A DNA stretch of 32,000 nucleotides from contig NZ_CP036280.1 in assembly GCF_007748075.1 (NCBI RefSeq), positions 1,500,001-1,532,000 on the forward strand, in the 5' to 3' direction. Each line of letters starts with the position of its first letter. The stretch's first letter is position 1. Positions 6,649 to 23,616 of the stretch are shown piece after piece. A model generated the notes under the pieces. It saw nothing but the letters and a program-made list of their open reading frames with translations, was not told the DNA's origin and did not search any database. Source of the DNA: Mucisphaera calidilacus. GTDB taxonomy: Bacteria > Planctomycetota > Phycisphaerae > Phycisphaerales > Phycisphaeraceae. The position numbers were made by a program, and so were the translations under genes.

Positions 6649-8436
6649 ATGTCCCTCAGAACGCACACCTGCGGCGCCCTCCGTGCCGACCACGTCGACC
6701 AGACCGTCTCACTCTGCGGATGGGTCAACAGCTACCGCGACCACGGCGGCGTCATCTTCATCGACCTGCGCGACCGCGAAGGCATCACCCAGGTCGTCTT
6801 CCACCCCGAGAACGCCGACGCACACGCCACCGGCGACCGCCTCCGCAACGAGGACGTCGTCCGCATCACCGGCACCTGCCTCCGCCGCGAGGAGGGCATG
6901 GCCAACCCCAAACTCGTCACCGGCGAGATCGAGGTCGACGCCCGACAGGTCGAGATCCTCAATAAGGCCGACACACCCCCCTTCACGCCCGACGACGCCG
7001 CACGCACCGGCGAGGAAACACGACTGCGCTACCGATTCATCGACATGCGCCGACCGGCCATGCAGAACATCCTCCGCACACGACACCGCGTCGCCAAACT
7101 CATGCGCGACTACTTCGACGAGAACGGCTTCTACGAGGTCGAAACCCCCTTCCTCTGCCGATCCACACCCGAAGGCGCACGCGACTTCCTCGTCCCCAGC
7201 CGACTCCAGCCCGGCGAGTTCTACGCGCTGCCCCAGAGCCCCCAGCTCTTCAAGCAGATCCTCATGTCAGGCGGCATCGACAAATACTTCCAGATCGTCC
7301 GCTGCTTCCGCGACGAAGACCCCCGCGCCGACCGCCAGGCCGAGTTCACCCAGCTCGACGTCGAGATGAGCTTCATCGACCAGGAAGACGTCATGAACAC
7401 CCACGAGGGGCTCATGCGCCGCATCTGGAAGGAAGTCCTCGACGTCGACGTCCCCGAAATCCGCCGCATGACCTACGCCGAAGCCATGAACCGCTACGGC
7501 TCCGACCGACCCGACCTCCGCTTCGACCTCGAACTCATCGACGTCACCGACATCGCCAAAGGCACCGACTTCAAGGTCTTCACCGCCTCCATCGAAGCAG
7601 GCGGCATCGTCAAGGCCATCCGTGTCCCCGGCGGCGCCAAACTCTCCCGCAAGGAAACCGACACCCTTGCCGAGTGGGTCAAGCAGTTCGGTGCCGGCGG
7701 CCTGCCCGTCTCCAAACGCGAAAACGGCGCCTGGTCCACCGGCATCGCCAAGTTCATCGAACCCGTCGGCGACGCCCTCGCCGAACGGCTCGGCGCACAG
7801 GACGGCGACCTCGTCTGCTTCGGCGTCAGCAACAAACCCGCCGTCGTCCACCGCGTCCTCGGCGAACTCCGCATACGACTCGCACACGACCTCGGCATGA
7901 TCCGCGACGACCAGTGGGAATGGCTCTGGGTCATCGACTTCCCCCTCGTCGAGTGGGACGACGACCGCAAACGCTGGCACTCCCTCCACCACCCCTTCAC
8001 CAGCCCCAACCCCGAGGACATGGACAAGCTCGAGTCCGACACCGCCAACGTCCGATCCTGGGCCTACGACCTCGTTCTCAACGGATCCGAACTCGGCGGC
8101 GGCTCCGTCCGTATCCACGACACCGAAACCCAGAAACGCGTCTTCAAGGTCCTGGGCATCGACGAGGAAGAAGCACGAGCCAAATTCGGCTTCCTCCTCG
8201 ACGCACTACGCTTCGGCGCCCCGCCCCACGGCGGAATCGCCTTCGGTCTCGACCGCATCGTCATGCACCTCTGCGGGACCACCAACATCCGCGACGTCAT
8301 CGCCTTCCCCAAAACGCAGAACGGAGCCGACCTCCTCACCGAAGCGCCCTCCGAGGTCGACCTCGAACAGCTCAAGGAACTCCACCTCCGCGTCAACCTG
8401 CCCCAGCCCGCCGCCACACCCACGCCCACCGCCTAG
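6649..8436 (+). CDS. aspS: aspartate--tRNA ligase (bacterial type)
   Basis: MSLRTHTCGALR...V.LCGWV...RDHGGVIFIDLRD..G..QVVF, FYALPQSPQLFKQ, QIVRCFRDEDPRADRQ.EFTQLD.EM, GGGS.RIH, PPHGG.A.GLDR. ATG 6649 gives 595 aa, which is typical. The ORF also opens at ATG 6580, adding 23 low-complexity residues. Confidence 0.93.
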   Translation: MSLRTHTCGALRADHVDQTVSLCGWVNSYRDHGGVIFIDLRDREGITQVVFHPENADAHATGDRLRNEDVVRITGTCLRREEGMANPKLVTGEIEVDARQVEILNKADTPPFTPDDAARTGEETRLRYRFIDMRRPAMQNILRTRHRVAKLMRDYFDENGFYEVETPFLCRSTPEGARDFLVPSRLQPGEFYALPQSPQLFKQILMSGGIDKYFQIVRCFRDEDPRADRQAEFTQLDVEMSFIDQEDVMNTHEGLMRRIWKEVLDVDVPEIRRMTYAEAMNRYGSDRPDLRFDLELIDVTDIAKGTDFKVFTASIEAGGIVKAIRVPGGAKLSRKETDTLAEWVKQFGAGGLPVSKRENGAWSTGIAKFIEPVGDALAERLGAQDGDLVCFGVSNKPAVVHRVLGELRIRLAHDLGMIRDDQWEWLWVIDFPLVEWDDDRKRWHSLHHPFTSPNPEDMDKLESDTANVRSWAYDLVLNGSELGGGSVRIHDTETQKRVFKVLGIDEEEARAKFGFLLDALRFGAPPHGGIAFGLDRIVMHLCGTTNIRDVIAFPKTQNGADLLTEAPSEVDLEQLKELHLRVNLPQPAATPTPTA

Positions 8437-16632: not shown

Positions 16633-18549
16633 CTATGGCTCCGGATAAAGCACCCAGTCGCAATCAATCAGTTCATCGTTCTCATCAAGCTCAGGCAGCC
16701 TCGGCCAATTCGTCGTCTCATCCACACGCCCACCATCGTCATCACCATCAAGACCCCGCCCGTACACCATCAGGTCCCCATCCTCCATCGCCCGCAACAG
16801 GTAAGGCCTTCCCTTTAAGTCCGACGCATCCGCGTATACCCTCGGCAGATACCCCGGCACCATCGCCGCCTGATCCGCCGGCCAACGCCCGTGCTCCCGC
16901 TTGAACACCTCCGCCGCCAACCGGATCACCACCGCATCACGCACGCTCCGGGTTTGTCCCTCCGTGCGCAAAACGCCTTCCAAAGCGGGCATCAGCATCA
17001 CTACCGGGAAATACCGTACGCCATACAGGCTGTAGGGATCTTCGCTCAACGCCACGATCTGCTCACCCAGATCGAACTCATGCAGCTCGGCAAGACTGTA
17101 CTTCGACGCCTCGATGATCTGTTCGTAATACGCATCCGCAACACGCTCCATCTCCCATCGCGGCGCAATCACCGCAGCGACAAGAGGGGTACTCGACGAC
17201 TGCAGCATACGCATGGCGATTTCCGTGTTCTTGACACTGCCTTCAATTCCCTCTATAAGATAATCGTAATTCGCTAAGACCAGAACACCCTCATCCGTCA
17301 TCCAGCCGCTCGGGCTGTAGATCCGATCGAAGTAATCTTCCATGAAGAAATCTCGCTCGAAGTAGATCCCCTCGACCACCGAGACATCGGCTACGGCCAA
17401 CTCATGCGCCAACGCCACCAGCTGTGAATCCGTCAGCAGCCCCGGGTCATCACGCAGGACCGCCCGCAGTTCTTCCAGCCGGTACGCCTGAATCGAAACC
17501 TTCACCAATTCACTGATCAGGAACGGCTGCTCCGCCGACCACGCCGCCAGACGACCGGTCGCCATGAAGTACGCCACAAACGCCTCGCCATCACCACGCG
17601 CAGCCGCGTCACGCATCGCCAGCCTAAAACTCCGCGCAATCTGCCTCTGAATCGAGAGATGCGGCAGCAGCACATGCAGCGTGCTCTGCGCCATCAGACG
17701 ATCCTCTGTCCGCAGCGAGTCCCAGTCCGGTGCCTCGGGCTGTCCCGACGCCTCATTACCCGTCGGGTTGTTCATCGCACGCCAGTCGTCCGGCTCCATG
17801 TCGTACTCAAAACCCACCCGAAAACCAAGGTACGGATAAGCCGTTAACGCCCGCAGCCGCTCAAGCGTCGCCGCGTTCTCCGCCAGATAAGCCTCCGCCA
17901 ACGGCCACAAACGCCCGTCAGGCTTCAACTTATTGACGTGATTCGGAATCTCGCCATCGACCTGATCCTCCACATCCTCCGGATCGAGTTTGCCCGACGC
18001 TTCCAGCTCGTGCAACGCACCGCTGAGCATCAGCGCCCTGAGCTCCGGCCACGCCTGATCCCTCTCCGCCTGAGCGTCCACGGACGCGTTCATCAGCGCA
18101 ATGATGTTCTCCCTTGGCCGCGGCTCGCCCATCATGAACCACAGGATCGCGGCCACATACAACACCGCCGTCACCCCCACCACGCGCCCCACCAGCACCC
18201 GCGCGTGATACACCACCGAACGCTGCCGCTTCTTCGCCCGTCGGATCAGCCGCGCCGCCTGGCGCACATCACCAAACCGTTCCACCAGTTCCTCCGCCGA
18301 CGCGCCCGCCTCGACACCATCCGCAAAATGCGCCACCAGCTCCCGCGCCACATCCGCCTTTTCACGCCGCCACAACCCCGACCGCCCCACCACCTCACGC
18401 ACCAGCCCCCGGCAGGGCTCGGGGATCGCCGCCGAGACAATCACCCACTTCCAGTCATACCGCCCCGACAACCGCCCGCGAATCCAATCCTTCATCGGCG
18501 TCGTCCGCATCTTCTGCCACACCCCCGGAACCGGTGACCGTGCGCTCAT
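16633..18549 (-). CDS. single-pass membrane protein, DUF1700/HAAS-like cytoplasmic head plus ~500-aa ectodomain (paralog B)
   Basis: ATG 18549 overlaps the stop of paralog A (ATGA). Head motif EKADVARELVAHFADGVEAGASAEELVERFGDVRQAARLIRRAKKRQR. TM helix VLVGRVVGVTAVLYVAAILWFMM. G/T-ending codon bias typical of - strand genes here. Confidence 0.85.
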   Translation of the reverse strand: MSARSPVPGVWQKMRTTPMKDWIRGRLSGRYDWKWVIVSAAIPEPCRGLVREVVGRSGLWRREKADVARELVAHFADGVEAGASAEELVERFGDVRQAARLIRRAKKRQRSVVYHARVLVGRVVGVTAVLYVAAILWFMMGEPRPRENIIALMNASVDAQAERDQAWPELRALMLSGALHELEASGKLDPEDVEDQVDGEIPNHVNKLKPDGRLWPLAEAYLAENAATLERLRALTAYPYLGFRVGFEYDMEPDDWRAMNNPTGNEASGQPEAPDWDSLRTEDRLMAQSTLHVLLPHLSIQRQIARSFRLAMRDAAARGDGEAFVAYFMATGRLAAWSAEQPFLISELVKVSIQAYRLEELRAVLRDDPGLLTDSQLVALAHELAVADVSVVEGIYFERDFFMEDYFDRIYSPSGWMTDEGVLVLANYDYLIEGIEGSVKNTEIAMRMLQSSSTPLVAAVIAPRWEMERVADAYYEQIIEASKYSLAELHEFDLGEQIVALSEDPYSLYGVRYFPVVMLMPALEGVLRTEGQTRSVRDAVVIRLAAEVFKREHGRWPADQAAMVPGYLPRVYADASDLKGRPYLLRAMEDGDLMVYGRGLDGDDDGGRVDETTNWPRLPELDENDELIDCDWVLYPEP

Positions 18550-18564
18550 GCCGCACCCCCCGTC
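18154..18564. repeat. 411-nt near-identical segment, copy in paralog B (pairs with 20139-20549)
   Basis: About 13 mismatches by eye over 411 nt (~97%). Covers 15 nt upstream of the ATG plus the first ~132 codons. Confidence 0.9.
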
Positions 18565-20534
18565 GCTAACCCGTGCCTCTGCCGCACCGGATACAACACC
18601 CAGTCACAGTCCGGCATCACCTCATCATCATAGTTGTAATCCAACTGCGGCCACGGCCGCTCGCCCCGCACACCCCCATCATCATCACCATCGAGCCCAC
18701 GCCCATAAATCATCAACCCGCCCTCATCATCCACTCGAAGAATCAACGGTCGAAGCGCCTCATCCGACTCATCGACATACACCTTCGGCAGATAACGAGG
18801 CACCATTTCAGCCTGATCCGCAGGCCATACCCCCTGATCCCGTCGATATAATTCCGCCGCCATCGCGATCATCAAACCATCTTGTGCAAGACGCCCCTGA
18901 GTCTCATTCTTGTAGCAAGCAGATAACGCTGGCGTGAACATAAAGATGGGGATATACCGAAACTTCATCCACGTCGAGTCAGACAGCCGCTCCAGATCAC
19001 TGTAGTACCCATACATCTTGCCATAGGGCATGGCGCCATACGCATGGGTCTCCGCGTAGCACCGATCAGCCATCGCCTGCATCGCATCACGATCCGCCAA
19101 CACCATCGACGCGATCGGCGTACCCAACCGATACAACCACCGTGAAGTCACAATGTCACTGAACAACTTGTGGCCCCAGGTTGGTGCTGTGTCCTCTTCT
19201 TCACCACCCCGACCATAAGCGTAGTTCTCAAACTGGAGCAGGCACTCCAGCCCCTCATCCGTGAGTTGGCCGTTCTTGCTGTAGATCCGGTCCAGAAATT
19301 CCTCCATAAAGAATCGCTGCTCTGACTCGATCCCCTCTCGAACCGAAAACGTCATACTCGCGAGCTGATGACACAACGCCCGTAGTTCCGAACGGTAATA
19401 CACCTCGGCATCATCTCTGAGGAATTGACCAACGCGCTCTAATGCCTCCTTCTTGATGTTGATGTCGACCAGACAGCAGATCATCATTGGCAGCTCACGT
19501 GCCCAGTCACCGATTCGTTGCATCGCCTTGACGCACGTCAGCACCCGCTCCGTATCACCTCGATAATGCGCCGCCACCATCTCGACCTGAATCAGCCTGG
19601 ACATGCGTCGCAATACCCCCAGATGCGGCAGCAGCACATGGATGCTGGATTGCCTGACAAGGCGCTTCGCCGTCGGCATCGCCGACCAGTCCGGCTCAGG
19701 CTCGTACCCGATGCCTTCCTTCGCACTGTCTCCGTAAAGCATCCGCAGATCTTCTTCATCCAGCCGGTACTCGAAATCAACGCGAAAACCCAGGTGTTCG
19801 ATCTCCGTTGCTGCCAGAATCTTCTCAATCGTTGACTCCGCCCGTTCGAGAAACACACCTACCCTCGGCCACGCCGGATGCTCAGGCGTCAGGTCACCCA
19901 GGAAGACAGTCTCATCCTCATCCCCTTCCAACTCTTCAGGCAGCATATCTTCCGACTTCGGATACATGCCCGACCATAAATCCAGGGAGGGATTGCGAGA
20001 GGATATCTCGATCTCCCTCAGAATCGGCCACGCCCGCTCTTCCACAGGCACATCCGCGATCGGCGCATTGATCCGCGCCACCAGCTCATCAATGCTCAAC
20101 GGCTGCGGCTCCCCAACCATCATCCACCCAGTGAGCAGCACATACAACGCCGCCGTCACCCCCACCACGCGCCCCACCAGCACCCGCGCGTGATACACCA
20201 CCGAACGCTGTCGCTTCTTCGCTCGCCGGATCAGCCGCGCCGCCTGGCGCACATCACCAAACCGTTCCACCAGTTCCTCCGCCGACGCGCCCGCCTCGAC
20301 ACCATCAGCAAAATGCGCCACCAGCTCCCGCGCCACATCCGCCTTTTCACGCCGCCACAACCCCAACCGCCCCACCACCTCACGCACCAGCCCCCGGCAG
20401 GACTCGGGGATCGCCGCCGAGACAACTACCCACTCCCAGTCATACCGACCCGAGAACCGCCCGCGAATCCAATCCTTCATCGGCGTCGTCCGCATCTTCT
20501 GCCACACCCCCGGAACCGGTGACCGTGCACTCAT
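18546..20534 (-). CDS. single-pass membrane protein, DUF1700/HAAS-like cytoplasmic head plus ~520-aa ectodomain (paralog A)
   Basis: ATG 20534 overlaps the padR stop (ATGA). The N-terminal ~130 aa are nearly identical to paralog B. The ectodomain is homologous but strongly diverged. Confidence 0.85.
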   Translation of the reverse strand: MSARSPVPGVWQKMRTTPMKDWIRGRFSGRYDWEWVVVSAAIPESCRGLVREVVGRLGLWRREKADVARELVAHFADGVEAGASAEELVERFGDVRQAARLIRRAKKRQRSVVYHARVLVGRVVGVTAALYVLLTGWMMVGEPQPLSIDELVARINAPIADVPVEERAWPILREIEISSRNPSLDLWSGMYPKSEDMLPEELEGDEDETVFLGDLTPEHPAWPRVGVFLERAESTIEKILAATEIEHLGFRVDFEYRLDEEDLRMLYGDSAKEGIGYEPEPDWSAMPTAKRLVRQSSIHVLLPHLGVLRRMSRLIQVEMVAAHYRGDTERVLTCVKAMQRIGDWARELPMMICCLVDINIKKEALERVGQFLRDDAEVYYRSELRALCHQLASMTFSVREGIESEQRFFMEEFLDRIYSKNGQLTDEGLECLLQFENYAYGRGGEEEDTAPTWGHKLFSDIVTSRWLYRLGTPIASMVLADRDAMQAMADRCYAETHAYGAMPYGKMYGYYSDLERLSDSTWMKFRYIPIFMFTPALSACYKNETQGRLAQDGLMIAMAAELYRRDQGVWPADQAEMVPRYLPKVYVDESDEALRPLILRVDDEGGLMIYGRGLDGDDDGGVRGERPWPQLDYNYDDEVMPDCDWVLYPVRQRHGLATGGAA

Positions 20535-20549
20535 GCCGCACCCCCCGTC
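20139..20549. repeat. 411-nt near-identical segment, copy in paralog A / padR 3' end
   Basis: See 18154-18564. The offset between copies is 1985 nt. Confidence 0.9.
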
Positions 20550-20878
20550 TGAGGCTCCGCGATCCCCAGCGACTTCATCGCCTCAACCAGCCGCAACCAC
20601 TGCGCCGTGTCACCCGCCAGCTTCTTCTTCCCCCGACCCGTCAGGCTGTAATACTTCCTCGGCCGAGGGCCAGCCTCGTCCGTCCGCGAGACGATCAGAC
20701 CCTTCGCCTCCAGGTTGTACAGCATCGGATAGAGCGTCGACTGCCCCATCGCCAGCAACCCGCCCGACTGCCGGTCCAGCGCCTGCACCAGCTCATACCC
20801 GTACCGCTCGCCCGCCTCCAGCAGCTTCAGCACCGCCAGCGGTCCCGCACCCCGCATCAACTCGCGTTCCAGTTTCAT
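20531..20878 (-). CDS. padR: PadR-family transcriptional regulator
   Basis: MKLERELMRGAGPLAVLKLLEAGERYGYELVQAL...GQSTLYPMLYNLEAKGLI......PRKYYSLT..G is the PadR winged-HTH pattern. ATG 20878 with a GAGG RBS is preferred over GTG 20890. Confidence 0.9.
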   Translation of the reverse strand: MKLERELMRGAGPLAVLKLLEAGERYGYELVQALDRQSGGLLAMGQSTLYPMLYNLEAKGLIVSRTDEAGPRPRKYYSLTGRGKKKLAGDTAQWLRLVEAMKSLGIAEPQTGGAA

Positions 20879-20897
20879 AAGACACCTCACTCAGTAG

Positions 20898-20914
20898 ACT
20901 ATGCACAGCATAGT
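20898..20914. promoter_or_regulatory. 7-3-7 inverted repeat upstream of padR (candidate operator)
   Basis: ACTATGC aca GCATAGT, about 20 nt upstream of the padR ATG in the padR/arsR divergent region. Binding is not demonstrated. Confidence 0.3.
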
Positions 20915-20986
20915 ATGCATCGCCCGATACGTCAAGCGTCTTGAATCTTAAAATATCTCGTTTTATGGAAATATGTCGAACTGTCG

Positions 20987-21343
20987 ATGTATTCAACACT
21001 CATGAGCTGCACACAACCCACCACCGACCCCCTGCCCATGGGACTCCTCGAACAGGCCGCCGACGCCCTACGCGTCCTCGCTCACCCGCACCGCCTCAAA
21101 ATCGTCGAGATCCTCCTCCAGCAGCGGCTCACCGTCGGCCAACTCGCCACCGAACTCCGCCTCCCCCAGGCCGCCGTCTCCGGACACCTCACACAGATGC
21201 GCGCCCACGACCTCCTCCGCGTCGAACGCGAAGGCCGAACCGCCTACTACCGCATCTGCCACCCCGCCGCCCACTTCATCATCAACTGCCTCACCACACA
21301 CCGGGACCAACTCTCCATCCACACCAACCAGGAAGCATCATGA
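20987..21343 (+). CDS. ArsR/SmtB-family transcriptional regulator
   Basis: LRVLAHPHRLKIVEILL...LTVGQLA.EL.L.QAAVSGHL..MR...LL...REGR..YY. Alternative ATG at 21002. Its stop overlaps the next start (ATGA). Confidence 0.88.
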   Translation: MYSTLMSCTQPTTDPLPMGLLEQAADALRVLAHPHRLKIVEILLQQRLTVGQLATELRLPQAAVSGHLTQMRAHDLLRVEREGRTAYYRICHPAAHFIINCLTTHRDQLSIHTNQEAS

Positions 21344-23022
21344 CCAACACCACACCCCTCAAACTCGTCATCGTCGGCGGCGTCGCCGGCGGAGCATCCG
21401 CCGCCGCCCGCGCCCGACGCATGAACGAACACGCCGAGATCATCCTCCTGGAGAAAGACCGCGACGTCTCCTTCGCCAACTGCGGACTCCCCTACTACCT
21501 AGGCGGCGAAATCACCGACCGCAACAAACTCACCGTCGCCTCCGCCGACCTCCTCCGCAAACGCTTCCGCATCGACGTCCGCACCATGACCGAGGCCGTC
21601 GCCATCAACCGCGACGCCAGAACCGTCACCGTCACAAACCACACCACCAACACCACCGAAGACCTCCCCTACGACAAGGTCATCCTCGCTCCAGGCGCCA
21701 GCCCCATCCGGCCCCCCGTCGGATGCGACCAGTGCCCAGGTGTCTTCACCCTCCGCAACCTCCACGACACCGACGACATCCACGACCACCTCGACAGAAT
21801 CGACAACAAACACGCCCTCGTCGTCGGCGGCGGCTACATCGGCATCGAGATGGCCGAACAACTCGTCGAACGCGGACACCCCGTCACCCTCGTCGAACGC
21901 GCCGAACAGGTACTCGCCCTCCTCGACCCCGAAATGGCACAGCCCGGCGCCAAGGCACTCACCGACAACGGCATCGACCTCCGCACTAGCGACGAGGTCG
22001 TCAACATCGAACGCAGCGACAACACCATCCACGCCACACTCAAGTCAGGCGCAACCCTCGACGTCGGCATCATCATCTTCGGCATCGGCGTCATCCCCAA
22101 CACCAAACTCGCCACCGACGCCGGCCTCGACACCGGACAGACAAGAGGCATCACCGTCGACCGCTACATGCGCACCTCCGACCCCGACATCTACGCCGTC
22201 GGCGACGCCGTCGAGTACGTCTACGGGCCCACCGGGCAATCCATGCGCATCGCCCTCGCCGGCCCCGCCAACCGCGCCGGACGCATCGCAGGCGAGCACG
22301 CCGTCACCGGAGAGTCACAGCCCATGGGCGACGTCTTCGGGACCTCCATCGTCCGCGTCTTCAACGTCGCCGCAGGACTCACCGGCCTCACCGCACGATC
22401 CGCCGAACGCTTCGGCATCGACGCCAACACCGTCACCGTCATCGCCAACCACCACGCCGGCTACTTCCCCGGCGCCAAGCCCGTCACCCTCAAACTCACC
22501 TACGCACCCGACACCGGCAAGGTCCTCGGCGCCCAGGCCGTCGGCGAGCAGGGCATCGACAAGCGACTCGACGTCATCGCCACCCTCATGGCCATGAACG
22601 GCACCGTCCGCGACCTCGCCAACCTCGACCTCGCCTACGCCCCTCCCTTCGGCTCCGCCAAGGACGTCCTCCATATGGCTGCCTTCGCCGCCTCCAACCA
22701 GCTCGACGGCTTCGACACCTTCCTGCCCGCCAACACCGACCTCGCCGATGATCAGGTCGTTGACGTCCGCACCGACGCCGAAGTCGCAAAGTCCCCCCTG
22801 CCCGCCGAGTCCGCCGTCACCCACATCCCCCTTGACGACCTCCGTGACCGACTCGGCGAACTCGACGCCGACCGACCCACCGTCGTCAGCTGCGCCTCCG
22901 GACTCCGCAGCCACGTCGCCGCACGCATCCTCCTCCAGAACAACTTCAAGGCCGTCTTCGAACTCTCCGGCGGCGCTACCATCCGCAACCGCGCCGTGGC
23001 CAGCCAGCCCGCCAACGCATAA
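21340..23022 (+). CDS. CoA-disulfide reductase-type FAD oxidoreductase fused to a C-terminal rhodanese domain (persulfide reductase-like)
   Basis: ATG 21340. VIVGGVAGGASAAARARR (FAD site), SFANCGLPYY (CoADR redox Cys), VVGGGYIGIEMAEQL (NAD(P)H site), AVGDA. C-terminal rhodanese with the VVSCASGLRS loop. The N-terminal part of ORF 20941..23022 is spurious. Confidence 0.88.
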   Translation: MTNTTPLKLVIVGGVAGGASAAARARRMNEHAEIILLEKDRDVSFANCGLPYYLGGEITDRNKLTVASADLLRKRFRIDVRTMTEAVAINRDARTVTVTNHTTNTTEDLPYDKVILAPGASPIRPPVGCDQCPGVFTLRNLHDTDDIHDHLDRIDNKHALVVGGGYIGIEMAEQLVERGHPVTLVERAEQVLALLDPEMAQPGAKALTDNGIDLRTSDEVVNIERSDNTIHATLKSGATLDVGIIIFGIGVIPNTKLATDAGLDTGQTRGITVDRYMRTSDPDIYAVGDAVEYVYGPTGQSMRIALAGPANRAGRIAGEHAVTGESQPMGDVFGTSIVRVFNVAAGLTGLTARSAERFGIDANTVTVIANHHAGYFPGAKPVTLKLTYAPDTGKVLGAQAVGEQGIDKRLDVIATLMAMNGTVRDLANLDLAYAPPFGSAKDVLHMAAFAASNQLDGFDTFLPANTDLADDQVVDVRTDAEVAKSPLPAESAVTHIPLDDLRDRLGELDADRPTVVSCASGLRSHVAARILLQNNFKAVFELSGGATIRNRAVASQPANA

Positions 23023-23046
23023 CCAGCACCAGAAAGCGAGATCACC

Positions 23047-23616
23047 ATGACCACGCTCAACAACAACATCGCCTTCGGCACCATCAAGCCCCAGAGGCTC
23101 GCCGAGATCCTCCACGAAAACCCCGACACCCACCTCATCGACGTGCGCACGCCCGCCGAGTACCGACAGGTCCACATACCCCAGGCACGGCTCATGCCAC
23201 TCGATTCCCTCGACCCCGCGGAAGTCCGCGAATACGCCGCCGACGACAAAACCCTCTACGTCGTCTGCCACGCAGGCGGCCGAGGCGCCAAGGCCTGCGA
23301 ACAACTCGCCGAAGCCGGCATCACCACCGTCGTCAACGTCGAGGGCGGAACCACCGCGTGGGCCGACGCCGGACTCCCCGTCGTCCGCACCAATGGCATG
23401 ATCTCCATCATGCGCCAGGTCCAGATCATCGCAGGTTCACTCATCCTCCTCGGCGTCGTCCTCGGCATCCTCGTCCACCCCTACCTCGTCGGCATCTCCG
23501 CCTTCGTCGGCGCAGGACTCCTCTTCGCCGGACTCACCGACACCTGCGGCATGGCCATCATCCTCGCACGCATGCCATGGTACAACGCCCCCAACGTCAA
23601 AAACTGCTCGATCTGA
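23047..23616 (+). CDS. YgaP-like rhodanese domain protein with C-terminal two-TM (DUF2892-like) anchor
   Basis: LIDVRTP.EY...HIP.A, active-site loop VVCHAGGRG, then MRQVQIIAGSLILLGVVLGIL...FVGAGLLFAGLTDTCGMA. Confidence 0.85.
   Translation: MTTLNNNIAFGTIKPQRLAEILHENPDTHLIDVRTPAEYRQVHIPQARLMPLDSLDPAEVREYAADDKTLYVVCHAGGRGAKACEQLAEAGITTVVNVEGGTTAWADAGLPVVRTNGMISIMRQVQIIAGSLILLGVVLGILVHPYLVGISAFVGAGLLFAGLTDTCGMAIILARMPWYNAPNVKNCSI

Follow-up and report, generated by a model that had tools for sequence, protein, structure and literature searches.

In this study, we describe a three-gene operon, padR-A-B, in a 32,000-nucleotide (nt) stretch of the genome of Mucisphaera calidilacus (Phycisphaerae, Planctomycetota; contig NZ_CP036280.1, positions 1,500,001 to 1,532,000, hereafter the window). 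It encodes a PadR-type regulator followed by two paralogous single-pass membrane proteins, here called sensor A and sensor B after their proposed role, both annotated as hypothetical in this organism. We estimate a probability of about 0.6 that the operon is an autoregulated two-input HAAS-PadR transmembrane signalling module, in which A and B dock via one common type of cytoplasmic head. Within the recently proposed HAAS-PadR system, the operon falls into a large branch from Planctomycetota that has not been described before.

The operon and its family

The three genes lie on the minus strand in the list of open reading frames (ORFs) of the window (Table 1), and the padR/A and A/B junctions both read GGCATGAG, where the ATG shares 4 nt with the preceding TGA. 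A preliminary description of this DNA, made from its letters, had reported three minus-strand genes with ATGA overlaps at both junctions, and both the coordinates and the 4-nt overlaps were confirmed. The regulator matches Pfam PF03551 at 2e-21 over residues 16-88, a winged-helix PadR domain, and reaches 74 bits against NCBIfam padR_acidobact, under the cut-off of that model. Its N-terminus, MKLERELMRGAGP, agrees with the family-wide M[KR]IERELMRGAGP, thus the ATG at 20878 was taken as the start of padR.

A profile search covering 1.84 billion cluster representatives recovered 5,149 proteins of the sensor family at E<=1e-30 and 33,674 at E<=1e-10, again counted as cluster representatives. The best 150 matches were nearly all full length, about 600-650 amino acids (aa), and the named sources were almost entirely Phycisphaerae and other Planctomycetota. 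The pairing with a PadR partner, which the preliminary description had suggested, held in a gene-neighbourhood survey of 85 non-redundant loci, which comprised the window, 80 loci of species-representative genomes and further ones retrieved through individual homologues. In 78 of these, padR was the immediate upstream neighbour in the same orientation, and 3 of the other 7 end at a contig border. A 4-nt overlap of the ATGA type was present at 48 of the 78 padR-sensor junctions, and since the other neighbour genes vary between loci, padR plus sensor is what forms the conserved unit.

A 21-bp palindrome at the putative padR promoter

The preliminary description had noticed a 7-3-7 inverted repeat (ACTATGC-TGT-GCATAGT, 20898-20914) 19 nt from the padR ATG and proposed it as an autoregulatory operator. 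The repeat is real and conserved, and it forms the inner part of a 21-bp palindrome (Table 1), so that the putative operator has an 8-5-8 rather than a 7-3-7 layout. In the window this palindrome is the sole match at <=3 mismatches (0.00 expected from shuffles). Upstream of padR it was found in 75 of 78 loci at >=13/16 matching positions, always with a 5-nt spacer and with 29 perfect copies, against one site at >=13/16 in the other 708 kb of sequence from these loci. When 72 upstream regions were aligned on the palindrome, they showed a TTGAC -35 element about 17 nt upstream of TACTAT in the left half-site, hence the palindrome overlaps the -10 element. Based on this distribution the palindrome is very likely the operator of PadR, and its position over the -10 of the putative padR promoter is, as far as sequence can tell, the classic layout of an autorepressor. 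The ATGT-N8-ACAT box of Bacillus subtilis PadR and LmrR differs from the 21-bp palindrome in half-site spacing.

The palindrome also extends beyond the sensor family. Among 120 matches listed from an exact-match scan of metagenome contigs, 54 had a PadR gene immediately downstream (median GC content 58%), and the other 66, mostly in low-GC DNA (median 41%) without PadR, are probably chance matches. Enough downstream sequence was available at 40 of the listed PadR-adjacent loci, 17 of which carry the ectodomain family described here; the remaining 23 encode different small or multi-transmembrane proteins, of which ten were tested and 7 scored at or above the Pfam threshold for HAAS. Because the palindrome-PadR pair also precedes other HAAS proteins, operator, PadR and HAAS head appear to form one conserved cassette in which the sensor part is exchanged. 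Among the metagenome loci L110-L208 there are cases (e.g. L113:9400-10050, L131:6266-6916 and L147:4221-5066; 39-68% GC) of palindrome and PadR followed by smaller HAAS/DUF1700 membrane proteins, thus the operator is characteristic of a broad group of PadR regulators coupled to HAAS and not of the planctomycetal family alone. Four perfect palindromes within 160 nt at L092:860-1017 were discarded as a simple tandem repeat in low-complexity DNA with no relation to PadR.

Architecture of sensors A and B

The gathering score of the Pfam HAAS model (PF22564) is 27, and A and B reached 28.5 and 27.5 bits, with the match spanning residues ~56-100. HAAS matches at E<1 were obtained for 56 of 70 family members (best 2.5e-8), and the strongest score among relatives was 58 bits (E=1.1e-15). 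A HAAS/DUF1700-type domain is thereby supported for the sensor head by profile, in line with the assignment in the preliminary description. Each sensor has one hydrophobic stretch, at residues ~112-140, with RRAKKRQR just before it, and this basic stretch ahead of the sole hydrophobic segment predicts an N-in, C-out topology for both proteins; the basic stretch KKRQR and single transmembrane (TM) helix of the preliminary description were thus recovered.

An AlphaFold2 model of A, built on a 70-sequence alignment, had a mean predicted local distance difference test score (pLDDT) of 87.7 and a predicted template modelling score of 0.81. In this model the head consists of helices 44-56, 61-80, 85-92 and 95-108 with a break at G93, which is invariant across the 70 family sequences; residues 112-140 form one long TM helix, 148-567 are all-alpha, and short strands occur at 598-648. 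As modelled, the head of A is broadly compatible with the published HAAS three-helix unit with its kinked last helix (PMC11237479). In the HAAS-PadR dyad, the kink of this third helix is expected at a conserved GxP motif.

Neither Pfam nor NCBIfam gave a match for the ~520-aa ectodomain of A and B. The earlier statement that the ectodomain lacks a family therefore stands as regards Pfam models and PDB folds, except that its last ~100 aa match the globular domain of the pseudopilin GspG. A profile restricted to the C-terminal part of the family (A4) matched GspG in PDB (2kep, E=1.7e-4), GspG making up 7 of the 12 listed matches, and the full family profile gave a weak match to the same structure (E=0.18). 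A headless relative, P0248, reached 4.9e-4 and 20.6 bits against Pfam T2SSG (PF08334), just below the cut-off of 21, and direct T2SSG matches at ~0.1 were seen in 2 of 70 family members. The alignment takes in the helix and strands of the globular domain together with an acidic loop, GRGLDGDDDGG; the A model has a long helix at 535-567 followed by short strands. A single-sequence model of the C-terminal 139 aa was unusable (pLDDT 33), hence the GspG link comes from the profile searches. On these profile matches, the last ~100 aa of the sensors are taken to be homologous to the GspG globular domain. The acidic loop of GspG binds Ca2+.

The translations contain neither a prepilin leader, nor a G/FTLIE-type cleavage-methylation motif, nor the hydrophobic assembly helix. 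Since the prepilin leader is missing and the GspG-like part sits at ~538-650 behind a cytoplasmic HAAS head, it is a borrowed domain rather than a pseudopilin. Like GspG/XcpT (PDB 2kep; PF08334), the last ~100 aa align along AL..Y....G.YP..L..L.P.YL...P.DP..G.P..Y......YS.G.DG.D.G., but unlike GspG/XcpT the sensors have no prepilin leader with a hydrophobic N-terminal assembly helix, and the domain comes last in a membrane protein of 640-660 aa, where it packs on the helical domain, which means that the sensor cannot be a pilus subunit.

Sensor A is a 100% match to the M. calidilacus hypothetical protein P0001. This public annotation has 653 aa, 9 codons short of the ATGA-coupled ORF, and the annotated start is probably too far downstream, because the coupled ATG fits both B, with its identical N-terminus, and the 48 overlapping family junctions.

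Gene conversion of the heads

Sensors A and B are 48% identical overall, with 95% aa identity in the head and 38% in the ectodomain. At the DNA level the head tract is 97% identical across 411 nt and has sharp borders (Table 1). In its head coding part 13 of 393 nt differ (96.7% identity), corresponding to 7 synonymous and 6 non-synonymous codon differences, and 32 differences fall in the 60 nt just past the tract. Third-codon-position identity was 88-100% within the tract and ~30-55% outside. When A was compared with its 81% identical orthologue P0002, the ectodomain was 82% identical and the head only 74%, thus the heads are not intrinsically slow-evolving. The heads of L006 and L001 show 65-75% identity. 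Judged from these comparisons, the near-identity of the A and B heads stems from recent gene conversion or recombination, and on the 3' side the tract stops within the TM helix.

On the 5' side the tract extends into the final codons of the gene upstream, and for this reason PadR and A both end in ...TGGAA*. The A orthologue in locus L006 (81% identical) ends in ...YPVR*, without the TGGAA tail and without a coupled downstream gene, which shows that the tract originated at the padR/A junction and was copied from there to that of A and B, where it gave rise to the second ATGA overlap. Since conversion was confined to the head, it is apparently the head that has to fit PadR.

Loci with several sensors

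The doubled sensor, which the preliminary description had singled out as an uncharacterised feature, is not unique to the window, since tandem or triple sensors occur in about 8% of the loci. Loci L013 and L020 have two tandem sensors and L041 has three, and in L064 the dyad is preceded by a further copy with a head. The ectodomains of L013 and L020 sort by orthology (72-78% identity between orthologues vs 43-46% between paralogues), with the gene order swapped; all four heads are 80-86% alike and carry no orthology signal. By these alignments, the window is one case of a recurrent multi-sensor design, and homogenised heads are also present in a second lineage. In L013:2857-6713 and L020:1433-5337, both from related Phycisphaeraceae metagenome-assembled genomes (MAGs), the pseudopilin-like part is also homogenised, and only the central helical domain is strongly divergent.

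Other variants of the sensor were seen as well. In P0124 and P0231 a single protein has two or three consecutive heads, and the headless ectodomain proteins P0248 and P0250 have a short N-terminus and a TM anchor. Headless copies adjoin a PadR-HAAS dyad at L073:6569-8419 and L031:2736-4403, others stand alone, and the gene contexts of the headless P0248 and P0251 were uninformative. In L035:4758-6704, L036:4860-6705 and L086:4434-6726, head/TM and ectodomain are encoded in separate adjacent or overlapping ORFs, which may reflect either genes that are truly split or frameshifts from assembly, one of the three loci coming from a nanopore MAG.

Features and neighbouring genes

Table 1. Coordinates of the padR-A-B operon and its features, counted from the first letter of the window
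Feature	Coordinates	Strand	Description
padR	20531..20878	-	115-aa short PadR-type winged-helix repressor; Pfam and NCBIfam matches
Sensor A	18546..20534	-	662 aa: cytoplasmic head 1-110, TM 112-140, periplasmic all-alpha 148-567, pseudopilin-like C-terminal part ~538-650
Sensor B	16633..18549	-	638 aa; architecture as in A, ectodomain divergent
Gene-conversion tract, copy 1	20139..20549	-	Last 15 nt of padR and codons 1-131 of A; alignment columns 12-422; repeat families D1, D15
Gene-conversion tract, copy 2	18154..18564	-	Last 15 nt of A and codons 1-131 of B; repeat families D1, D15
Operator-like palindrome	20896..20916		ATACTATGctgtgCATAGTcT (21-mer ATACTATGCTGTGCATAGTCT); 15/16 to consensus ATACTATG-N5-CATAGTAT
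Putative sigma-70-type promoter	20907..20935	-	TTGACG-17-TATGCT; -10 within left half-site; consensus match only
GspG-like subdomain of A (type II secretion system pseudopilin globular domain)	18585..18923	-	C-terminal profile against PDB; acidic loop GRGLDGDDDGG

An ArsR-family gene (20987-21343, plus strand) is divergent from padR, with a common intergenic region of 108 nt. It is the first gene of a plus-strand set (20987-23616) that continues with a flavoprotein resembling CoA-disulfide reductase, with a rhodanese domain, and a rhodanese/YgaP-like membrane protein; this set looks like a sulfide- or persulfide-handling operon, and the ArsR-flavoprotein-rhodanese arrangement beside padR is syntenic in L001. 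Rfam and tRNA scans of the window gave no match, and a terminator-like site within A (18749-18768) was at chance level (1 seen vs 2.8 expected).

Proposed mechanism and alternative explanations

In the mechanism that we propose, PadR, probably as a dimer, would bind the 21-bp palindrome over its own -10 element and repress padR-A-B. A and B would be N-in single-pass proteins that dock PadR through the HAAS head on the cytoplasmic side and perceive different envelope or periplasmic cues through the periplasmic region, which combines a novel all-alpha part with the pseudopilin-like one. A change in the state of either ectodomain may then lead its head to capture or reconfigure PadR at the membrane, by which the operon would be derepressed along with any unlinked targets bearing the same palindrome. 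ATGA coupling would hold the regulator and the sensors in fixed proportion, and gene conversion would keep both heads matched to the single PadR as the ectodomains diverge, giving two inputs and one output. Repression of the operon by PadR at the palindrome is well supported by the comparative evidence, the binding itself being predicted. We infer the contact between head and PadR, the direction of the signal and the sensory role of the ectodomain by analogy with the HAAS-PadR proposal (PMC11237479) and the Listeria precedent described below, and the head-specific gene conversion would lend the HAAS-PadR contact indirect support.

Several observations weigh against this mechanism. The HAAS scores in the window exceed the cut-off by a margin of 0.5-1.5 bits, and the GxP position of the head reads G-D-V in A and B, G-D-P being present in only part of the family. 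A Foldseek search of PDB with the full-length A model returned nothing at E<=1e-3, only generic helical repeats, and for the ectodomain neither a ligand site nor a structural relative was found (Foldseek/PDB). In a mirror-tree comparison with phylogeny controlled, the correlation between PadR and head was not significant (partial r=0.12, p=0.06), and the PadR-ectodomain correlation was higher than that of PadR and head, probably due to phylogeny. The neighbourhoods compared contained no conserved output gene beside the padR-sensor dyad, and ~700 kb of flanking DNA held only two extra operator-like sites, thus the module may regulate mainly itself. One of these sites precedes an orphan sensor (L052) and the other a secreted dienelactone-hydrolase-family gene in a Lacipirellulaceae MAG (L066). 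The latter site (L066:6958-6978, 14/16) is located 23 nt upstream of the hydrolase gene (7001-7627), directly downstream of the sensor, and the hydrolase gene is a possible regulon member.

Such self-contained regulation would also be expected if A and B were effectors in a homeostatic feedback rather than sensors, i.e. periplasmic envelope-maintenance proteins, acting for instance as scaffolds or chaperones via the pseudopilin-like domain, with the head reporting free A/B by titration of the PspA/PspF type and the operon as its main output. This is the strongest competitor of the two-input module, although we regard it as considerably less probable. Most loci consist of padR and the membrane protein alone amid variable neighbours, almost no extra operator sites occur in the flanks, Listeria LltR and LstR chiefly control their own operons (PMC6624303), and headless ectodomains exist as plain membrane-anchored proteins (P0248, P0250), sometimes beside a head-bearing copy (L073, L031). 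On the other hand, the operator scan spans ~700 kb of locus flanks, so a distal regulon may exist, and the 14/16 site in L066 precedes a secreted hydrolase gene. Moreover, tandem copies have diverged strongly in the central ectodomain, a pattern that is seen more typically in recognition modules than in housekeeping effectors.

A single input would remain if B were a redundant duplicate of A without a distinct cue, the identity of the heads then being a functionless trace of recent duplication or recombination. In the syntenic relative L001, padR and bioF are separated by one sensor gene, and the closest relative found for the B ectodomain is A, at 36% identity in a word-indexed protein search that needs shared 5-residue words and may miss closer ones. 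However, the ORF of B is intact, and B is not a decaying copy, because it keeps 74% of the family-conserved (>=80%) ectodomain columns vs 71% in A. Ectodomains at 38% identity beside heads at 97% nucleotide identity are incompatible with one recent whole-gene duplication, and L013, L020 and L041 are independent cases of several sensors at one locus with homogenised heads; redundancy of B is therefore unlikely. That the palindrome might serve the divergent ArsR-family gene, with which it shares the 108-nt intergenic region, instead of PadR is very improbable and was rejected, since the palindrome tracks padR across loci, most of them without a divergent ArsR gene, and imperfect inverted repeats of a separate kind are present on the side of the ArsR gene, in L001 as well as in the window.

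The two-input module may be an instance of something wider, i.e. a phosphorylation-independent transmembrane signalling cassette, widespread in Planctomycetota, in which one PadR, a universal 21-bp operator and a docking head are combined with one to three interchangeable periplasmic sensors of unseen fold, including a pseudopilin-derived subdomain, with the heads kept matched by gene conversion and the inputs converging on one transcriptional output. We put forward this generalisation tentatively, as a possibility about which more doubt than confidence is in order.

Relation to known systems

Co-transcribed sigma/anti-sigma pairs, and the membrane sequestration of Mlc by EIICB-Glc, are cases in which a membrane protein controls a soluble transcription factor by direct binding. 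As analogies they resemble the proposed module in that control would be by direct binding and not phosphotransfer, and in the use of one translationally coupled operon, but neither has a sequence or fold relationship to PadR-A-B.

The HAAS-PadR dyad has been proposed on computational grounds as a widespread alternative to two-component systems (mSystems 2024, PMC11237479). The dyad being already known as a proposal, padR-A-B is not categorically new. As in that proposal, a standalone short PadR gene is followed by a membrane protein with an N-terminal cytoplasmic HAAS domain, and the head stands ahead of the TM and sensory part, for which a two-component-like relay was proposed. The fusions described there involve multi-TM PspC, LiaI-LiaF-TM, FtsX/MacB and FtsW/RodA partners with 2-6 TM helices, or intracellular Toastrack and pentapeptide domains (PMC11237479). 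By contrast, the proteins described here have a single TM helix and a ~520-aa periplasmic domain without a Pfam model, which is restricted to Planctomycetota; one PadR is paired with two or three sensors, no phage shock protein (PSP) components lie nearby, and the sensor head has an extra conserved N-terminal segment at aa ~10-43.

The preliminary description had presented HAAS-PadR as a computational proposal, which is mainly correct (PMC11237479), with partial experimental precedent in the LltR operon of Listeria (PMC6624303). In L. monocytogenes, LltR (Lmo0599), Lmo0600 (DUF1700) and Lmo0601 (DUF4097) likewise form an operon with PadR first and a DUF1700/HAAS membrane protein (PMC6624303). 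That operon is strongly autorepressed, by ~150-fold, and off by default despite the HAAS protein; by analogy, the autorepression layout proposed for padR-A-B matches it. It differs in belonging to Firmicutes, in its small HAAS protein without a large ectodomain, and in a partner of Toastrack type rather than a paralogous sensor. No operator sequence for the LltR operon was found reported in PMC6624303 for comparison.

Our literature search found nothing on this sensor family, on PadR in planctomycetes or on the 21-bp operator. Four features therefore appear to be undescribed: a single-pass protein whose large ectodomain has no assigned fold, its subdomain derived from a pseudopilin, the common 21-bp operator, and loci with several sensors that show head-specific concerted evolution.

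Significance

HAAS-PadR signalling has almost no experimental footing, and the locus offers a clean minimal test bed in cultured M. calidilacus Pan265, with one regulator, one well-defined operator and two sensors. Because the operator is common to HAAS-coupled PadR genes with differing sensors, one electrophoretic mobility shift assay or reporter design could serve many systems. The gene conversion restricted to the head amounts to a natural experiment on the part that would match PadR, and the ectodomain family, without a Pfam model or a PDB fold match, represents a sizeable unannotated share of planctomycetal envelopes.

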